From Escherichia coli (GTDB lineage Bacteria > Pseudomonadota > Gammaproteobacteria > Enterobacterales > Enterobacteriaceae): a stretch of 64,000 nt of DNA. The position numbers and the translations under genes are program-made. The notes below the pieces were generated by a model. That model did no database searches, was not told the DNA's origin, and saw only the letters and a program-made list of their open reading frames with translations. Shown here in pieces: positions 58,053-58,513 of the stretch; within the stretch, counting starts at the first letter, position 1; every line of letters starts with the position of its first letter. The stretch lies in assembly GCF_001677475.2 (NCBI RefSeq), contig NZ_CP015229.1. One strand, given 5' to 3'.

Positions 58053-58163
58053 ATTTTTCCGTGTAACCAGGCAACCGACTATCTGAAAGATAGTCACCCC
58101 CTACCGGGATCACGCTAGTAACGCACAACAGAGTGACCCATAGCCACCCTGTTCAACCGTTCC

Positions 58164-58207
58164 GGCTGGCTGGCTGGCTGGCTGGCTGGCTGGCTGGCTG
58201 GCTGGCT
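58164..58207. repeat. Tetranucleotide microsatellite (GGCT)11
   Basis: Eleven uninterrupted GGCT units (44 bp), intergenic, about 110 bp after the perC-like stop. It is flanked by 11-bp direct repeats CACAACAGAGT at 58124 and 58239. Confidence 0.95.
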
Positions 58208-58513
58208 GGGCAGATTTTGCGCGGGTCTTATAGTCCCTCACAACAGAGTAAATAAAATTGACTTGGTTACAGAGTAACCAAACCGGAGATTTCCGGTTTG
58301 CTCAAAAAATGACAATGAGTTACGCCCCTAACCTAAGTAATCCTTACATTCACTGCATCATCACCATGATGGTGACGCAGCCCACCAACAACCATAACGA
58401 CTTCCGTTACGGTTGATGCTTTTACCCCATTGGGGGGGGACATCCACCAGCTTGATAACGGATAACAGGGAGTCATAACGGTTAAAATTGTATACTTTTG
58501 CAGCAAACATTTT

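Follow-up and report, generated by a model that had tools for sequence, protein, structure and literature searches.

Escherichia coli is regarded as nearly devoid of long simple-sequence repeats (SSRs). The VNTR loci used for its typing by MLVA mostly have units of 6 bp or more, and in Haemophilus influenzae and Neisseria the modA methyltransferase genes (phasevarions) are phase-variable by frameshift, through AGCC tracts located inside the genes. AGCC[n] is listed among the mod repeat types, and a type III mod gene of Shiga-toxin-producing E. coli carries a CAGCGAC[n] tract (PMC5909438). In the nadA locus of Neisseria meningitidis, NadR operators flank a TAAA tract and the repeat number modulates repression via the operator spacing (PMC2791445), while for Haemophilus influenzae PMC12721329 describes an RNase III-targeted element in the 5'-UTR as essential for SSR-dependent phase variation. 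Phase variation in E. coli is known via DNA inversion or Dam methylation (PMC11868660). For K-12, PMC7015867 (after Gur-Arie 2000) gives 4 copies as the longest tetranucleotide repeat and names (TGGC)n, a cyclic permutation of (GGCT)n, as the commonest short one, so that 2-copy seeds of such an array are plentiful. Below we report the analysis of a (GGCT)11 tract in a stretch of 64,000 nucleotides of an E. coli chromosome (the window), and we hold, with moderate confidence, that this tract is a slippage-born, hairpin-prone and probably neutral VNTR.

The tract at 58164-58209 consists of (GGCT)11 followed by GG, and Tandem Repeats Finder describes it with period 4, 11.5 copies, 100% matches and a score of 92, as the only array with more than three copies in the window. 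The window contains 11 occurrences of GGCTGGCTGG, where 0.15 would be expected, and the array is a microsatellite in the sense of perfect head-to-tail units of 1-6 bp beyond chance. A two-tetrad G-quadruplex formed by its G2N2 runs and a Chi-like activity were considered as candidate properties, GCTGGCTG differing from the Chi sequence GCTGGTGG at 2 positions. Two exact copies of the 11-bp direct repeat CACAACAGAGT stand on the + strand at 58124-58134 and 58239-58249, 115 bp apart from start to start, and their likeness extends over 19 nt at 84%. The left copy is present in all haplotypes but the FDAARGOS_943 type. An earlier sequence-only reading of the window had reported the perfect tract, its position and both copies of the direct repeat, and was correct in all of these. 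The tract begins 112 bp past the stop of a PerC-family gene (58052), and the attR core lies 384 bp beyond the tract.

The host is E. coli, with yejM-proL being 99.2% identical to many E. coli genomes, and the tract belongs to an island of about 11 kb located between yejM-proL and the autotransporter gene yejO. The island is bounded by att repeats, attL at 47598-47625 at the tRNA-Pro(GGG) gene proL (47540-47616) and attR at 58593-58620 (+ strand), a direct repeat of the tRNA-Pro 3' end (28 nt, 86%). Pfam and PHROGs assign a tyrosine integrase (47807-49066), a D5-type primase-helicase (51410-53215), a lambda E-like major capsid protein (54242-55369), a lambda D-like decoration protein (55379-55720), an AlpA-type regulator (55732-56115) and a full-length Nu1-like small terminase (56305-56859). 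Directly after the primase-helicase gene, GGTGAACAGT iterons in direct and inverted orientation are densely clustered (53214-53430), and this cluster is probably the replication origin of the island. The exact 12-nt lambda cohesive-end sequence GGGCGGCGACCT is found on the + strand at 56172-56183, 122 bp upstream of the Nu1-like gene, and is likely the cosN, or packaging site, of the island. With an integrase, AlpA, a primase-helicase with iterons, a cos site and att repeats at a tRNA, in the size range of about 10-15 kb, the island is a lambda-type cos phage-inducible chromosomal island (PICI) of the Gram-negative kind, whose architecture has been described (PMC6739421). PerC-family genes are frequent as accessory genes of such PICIs (PMC11773190). 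The one in this island (perC, 57750-58052, + strand; Pfam PF06069, E 7.6e-23) encodes in its 100-aa form a protein identical to the RefSeq product WP_021558663.1 at homologous loci, the alternative being a longer ORF of 123 aa starting at 57681, and the exact PerC protein is listed in 3367 blocks of a public assembly collection.

Several other features of the island are worth recording. A near-perfect 32-bp palindrome, CTTATTGTGGGACAGTACTGTCATACAATAAG, lies at 57647-57678 between perC and a divergent 100-aa gene, and is likely an operator. The PICI (47617-58612) encodes its own capsid and decoration genes plus the full-length small terminase, and no portal, protease or large terminase gene was noticed in it; in its gene set it is intermediate between the classical E. 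coli PICIs and the capsid-forming PICIs. Beyond its right end, the yejO ORF (58713-61304, minus strand) is intact with 863 aa; in every inspected homologous locus annotating yejO, RefSeq has it as a pseudogene by frameshift or internal stop.

The cos site bears on one reading of the tract, namely that the tract is itself part of the packaging site, or else an artefact of assembly, which we consider extremely improbable. The CGCGGGT in its right flank loosely resembles the sequence beside lambda cosN, and simple repeats do mis-assemble; however, the exact cosN 12-mer is situated elsewhere in the island, beside the Nu1-like gene, and long tracts occupy the identical position in four independent assemblies besides the window. 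A cos-site role of the tract was rejected on the absence of the cosN sequence from it.

The tract is located in a non-coding spacer (58053-58423) leading from perC to a variable cargo slot, and this spacer is found in about 30 complete E. coli genomes. It starts with the hairpin GACTATC-TGAAA-GATAGTC (58077-58095), which is retained also next to a different upstream gene. Two short ORFs overlap the tract, one at 58133-58255 (+) and one at 58110-58241 (-), and neither is conserved: strains A36 and A19 have GTA in place of the GTG start of the former, and both frames are interrupted by 1-nt indels elsewhere among the haplotypes. No RefSeq annotation covers the tract at the homologous loci. A coding role of the tract was rejected, since the overlapping ORFs lose their start codon or frame in relatives, which bears out the earlier statement that the tract lies outside any credible ORF. 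Likewise, a coding role for the 35-aa ORF starting at 58309 was rejected, for an indel in a C-run breaks its frame in relatives. This C-run (58325-58328) is CCCC in the window and CCCCC in STEC379, C5 and UViG_2693429582, making it a second, small slippage polymorphism. The cargo slot itself (58424-58440) has 17 bp in the window versus an insert of 677 bp in A19. In sister islands 0.7-1.8 kb are found in this slot, for example a 102-aa hypothetical protein (A36 and A19) or a Panacea-domain pair (CFIAFB20180511).

The tract-bearing segment is dispensable. A deletion of about 150 bp from the exact right edge of the tract is common (TUM1881, L015, L018, L019, L025), four genomes, those of the FDAARGOS_943 type, have other sequence in place of the left half of the segment, and in C5 and UViG_2693429582 the tract region is kept with perC absent. 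The point-interrupted form GGCTGACTGG at many loci is also counted as a sign of dispensability. The spacer shows low divergence, and conservation as a sign of function was rejected, because the adjacent perC is equally invariant and the whole module is nearly identical everywhere. The search of phage and plasmid collections with 58054-58420, distant mode included, gave no match. In addition, a hypervariable patch of about 30 bp is observed right of the tract (58205-58235; in L006/L007 at about 2125-2150), with 9 differences in 40 nt between haplotypes that are nearly identical over the other ~350 nt. Three independent rearrangement junctions fall in this patch: the deletion of the TUM1881 type, the replacement of the FDAARGOS_943 type and the 1-nt indels.

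We then present an overall view of the alleles in relatives. When 5426 complete E. coli genomes are searched by megablast with 58054-58330, 52 of them match, 27 with both flanks; match spans first showed most of these to be 36 bp shorter than the window, and the copy numbers were counted from alignments and by direct reading of the loci. Strain A36, whose island lies next to yifB, has 11 copies like the window; strain A19, whose island lies at proL as in the window, has 9, the metagenome contig ERZ808028 has 8 and the IMG/VR contig UViG_2778261085 has 13. Six sequenced loci from the megablast and IMG/VR matches, among them RM9088, STEC379, CFIAFB20180511, C5 and UViG_2693429582 (the relatives of L015 being excluded), have 2 copies, that is GGCTGGCTGG, and this allele is the majority, with about 25 genomes in all as judged by match span. 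The interrupted allele is found in STEC316, IGC, TUM1881, L015 and others. Ten further loci, reached through the exact PerC protein, show 2 copies in three cases and the interrupted allele in seven, with no expanded tract among them. Alleles of 3-7 copies were found at none of about 45 loci, so that the allele spectrum is bimodal, with 2 versus 8-13 copies, the long alleles numbering five. A pattern search for the left flank followed by at least 3.5 copies, run over viral, metagenome and species-representative collections, matched only the known long alleles in the former two; species-representative genomes contained no expanded allele, their single match, in Leisingera, being due to chance. 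In viral contigs such long tracts are rare without being unique: among 2.9 million contigs, 85 stretches of at least 8 GGCT copies are detected, and only one of them is this locus. The IMG/VR stretches of this kind (L026-L104) belong to unrelated viral contigs, many of them at contig ends and some with more than 24 copies, and the contig-end tracts suggest breakpoints of assembly at such repeats.

Short-read assemblies can collapse repeat tracts (PMC5909438), and some of the 2-copy calls could accordingly be artefacts. Against this, a short tract is present in 25 of the 27 complete genomes, and collapse cannot produce the interrupted allele. The flanks were compared over about 450 aligned positions. 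The 8-copy ERZ808028 and the 2-copy CFIAFB20180511 have no flank difference at all and share a rare 1-nt deletion; A19 (9 copies) and RM9088 (2 copies) have 2 differences, and A36 (11 copies) and A19 (9 copies) have 1. The long alleles stand on four flank haplotypes, the window and UViG_2778261085 accounting for two of these. The tract is a VNTR in the sense that its copy number differs on near-identical sequences, and the earlier expectation of a hypervariable marker is supported, with 2, 8, 9, 11 and 13 copies at related loci; the comparison of repeat number among island-carrying genomes, which had been proposed as a check, shows variation. Since long and short alleles share identical or nearly identical flanks, the aligned loci indicate that the tract changes faster than its flanks mutate, and changes between 2 and at least 8 copies have taken place on at least two backgrounds, faster than point substitution, as is the behaviour expected of a hypermutable repeat.

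The perC and tract module is not confined to proL: it is also found in islands next to yifB, smrA, thiM, clpS and a peptidase M20 gene. In the two module islands with an integrase gene in view, A36 and A19, the integrase proteins differ. The module is therefore not an integrase arm, for its islands occupy several chromosomal sites with different integrases in A36 and A19; integrase-arm repeats lie near the att core and are integrase-specific, and those of the tract are neither. This bears on the proposal of the sequence-only reading that the copy number of the tract affects an antisense promoter directed into perC, or the way the attR arm is laid out, which we now judge very improbable. The tract does lie on the 5' side of a minus-strand ORF (57808-58128) and inside the island near its right end. 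However, a consensus scan of the minus strand around the tract detects nothing promoter-like, the antisense ORF is annotated in no homologous RefSeq locus, and the distance to the att core, already 384 bp here, exceeds 1 kb in A19 owing to its 677-bp cargo insert, so neither part of the proposal was upheld.

How such a tract may come about is suggested by the folding of its strands. As single-stranded DNA, the GGCT strand folds with -15.8 kcal/mol against -4.8 kcal/mol for the AGCC strand, and forms a long hairpin of G-C pairs and G-T pairs. For triplet repeats in E. coli, the identity of the strand that serves as lagging-strand template determines the outcome. The host DNA here has a negative GC skew on the + strand, and proL lies in the left replichore of K-12, so that the GGCT strand would be the template of leading-strand synthesis, the more permissive of the two orientations; to judge by the gene order in L001, this also applies to the yifB site of A36. 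We infer that a (GGCT)2 proto-repeat was the starting point of the tract and was extended through slipped-strand mispairing, in a spacer that is non-coding and dispensable and belongs to the accessory end of this cos-type PICI. The self-folding GGCT strand, with its G-C pairs and G-T wobbles, would favour slippage as well as large deletions, and the copy number would thereby shift faster than the flanks mutate. A programmed regulatory role is most likely absent under this explanation, the tract serving only as a length-polymorphic marker of the satellite module. The bimodal spectrum is not predicted by simple stepwise neutral slippage, and may stem from selection favouring two states, from collapse through hairpins or from the small sample. 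Another point against neutrality is that three ACAGAGTRA motifs and a promoter-like site, to judge from their sequences, make the surroundings of the tract resemble regulatory DNA.

The promoter-like site is located on the + strand at 58207-58234 and reads TGGGCA-16 nt-TATAGT (-35 at 58207-58212, -10 at 58229-58234), with 9 of 12 matches to the consensus. The final CTGG of the tract supplies the first bases of its -35 hexamer. The tract lies upstream of this site, so its copy number cannot alter the spacing between -35 and -10 and sets only what precedes the -35; an effect on promoter spacing is thus possible in a weak form only. Classical SSR contingency loci have their tract between -35 and -10 or inside an ORF; here the 16-nt spacer is fixed and the tract is in neither place. 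The ACAGAGTRA motifs are found at 58128, 58243 and 58269, the first two in the left and right copy of CACAACAGAGT respectively and the third, ACAGAGTAA, in the palindrome GGTTACAGAGTAACC (58265-58279), which resembles a terminator in its minus-strand score, as a hairpin with a T-rich run behind it. Three such motifs within 150 bp compare with 0.42 expected in the whole window, the trio recurs in all six related loci checked, and by its sequence it looks like the operator of a DNA-binding protein.

These elements would allow a distal-promoter spacing switch of the nadA kind, in which the ACAGAGTRA motifs to the left and right of the tract are bound by a regulator, the copy number sets their distance and helical phase, and a + strand promoter facing the cargo slot is expressed stochastically with copy number. 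We regard this as unlikely. It would account for a motif trio far above chance and recurring among relatives, for a promoter-like site that abuts the tract and has its predicted start inside the right copy of CACAACAGAGT, and for bimodal alleles, which fit two preferred states, and the NadR operators flanking the nadA tract are a precedent (PMC2791445). However, the promoter-like site is weak and no commoner than in shuffled sequence, the consensus scan finding 2 such sites in the region versus 2.7 expected. The STEC316/IGC haplotype has lost its -10, and the FDAARGOS_943 type has other sequence in place of its -35 region. In the window a promoter at the tract would have no downstream gene to serve, because the cargo slot has only 17 bp. 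Moreover, the spacings in the long alleles, 102, 107, 115 and 123 bp, share no helical phase, and the binding protein is hypothetical.

A further reading places the function in RNA: perC transcription would read through the spacer, and (GGCU)n of at least 8 copies would form a G-C/G-U hairpin of about 20 bp, stabilising the perC 3' end or making an RNase III site that splits perC from the cargo mRNA. From perC to the host terminator (58621-58651), the scan of the + strand shows no intrinsic terminator-like site, which agrees with read-through, and the predicted fold of 58053-58320 places the whole 11-copy tract in one long hairpin of ~20 bp (z = -3.4), which is missing in the 2-copy allele. 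The RNase III and SSR case of Haemophilus influenzae, as presented in PMC12721329, can be taken as precedent. On the other hand, the 2-copy allele folds just as significantly with no tract hairpin (z = -3.8), and most islands do without a long tract. The C5 and FDAARGOS_943 variants lack the predicted long-range helix, and no compensatory changes are seen, the only changes in the 58280-58299 hairpin (L012) being non-compensatory. Rfam shows nothing over its gathering thresholds; with E up to 10 over 57900-58720 it shows nothing at the tract, and the weak matches near the host terminator (58620-58650) are due to chance. We consider an RNA element improbable.

That the tract is in any way a true contingency switch on a phage satellite, toggling either the spacing of the ACAGAGTRA motifs or an RNA hairpin, appears quite unlikely. 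Were it so, perC or the cargo genes in the adjacent slot would be expressed stochastically, the bimodal spectrum (2 versus 8-13 copies) would represent two selected states, and E. coli would have a mobile, SSR-driven phase-variable module, with a mechanism otherwise typical of Haemophilus and Neisseria. If the tract modulates expression, E. coli would have in it one of its rare SSR switches, travelling on a phage satellite. At present, it is a well-documented curiosity with no mechanism attached. As a probably neutral VNTR, the tract of 8-13 copies, with its length changing on identical flanks, demonstrates that such repeats arise and persist on mobile elements of E. coli.

Comparison with the known systems places the tract among these. 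With nadA it shares an intergenic tetranucleotide tract, situated upstream of a core promoter and bracketed by repeated short motifs; unlike in nadA, the promoter here is a consensus match only, with no gene downstream in the window, and most relatives of the GGCT locus carry the non-slipping 2-copy or interrupted allele. With the modA tracts it shares the unit, AGCC being the reverse complement of GGCT, and similar copy numbers, whereas the modA tracts lie inside an ORF and the GGCT tract in no conserved one. The tract thus fails both positional criteria of the classical SSR contingency loci, and its likeness to nadA is one of layout only. The CAGCGAC[n] tract of the type III mod gene is a precedent for a long SSR of variable length in E. 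coli, although that repeat has a 7-bp unit in coding sequence and controls the methyltransferase by frameshift. The (TGGC)n/(GCCA)n repeats of K-12, as given in PMC7015867, equal the present motif by cyclic permutation and are plausible proto-repeats; they reach at most 4 copies, while the tract comprises 11 and its counterparts in relatives as many as 13. Finally, like the MLVA loci, the tract is a length-polymorphic tandem repeat that serves as a marker without demonstrated function. Unlike them, it has a 4-bp unit and resides on a mobile satellite, marking the island rather than the strain, and its length is an inexpensive means of following one PICI module.
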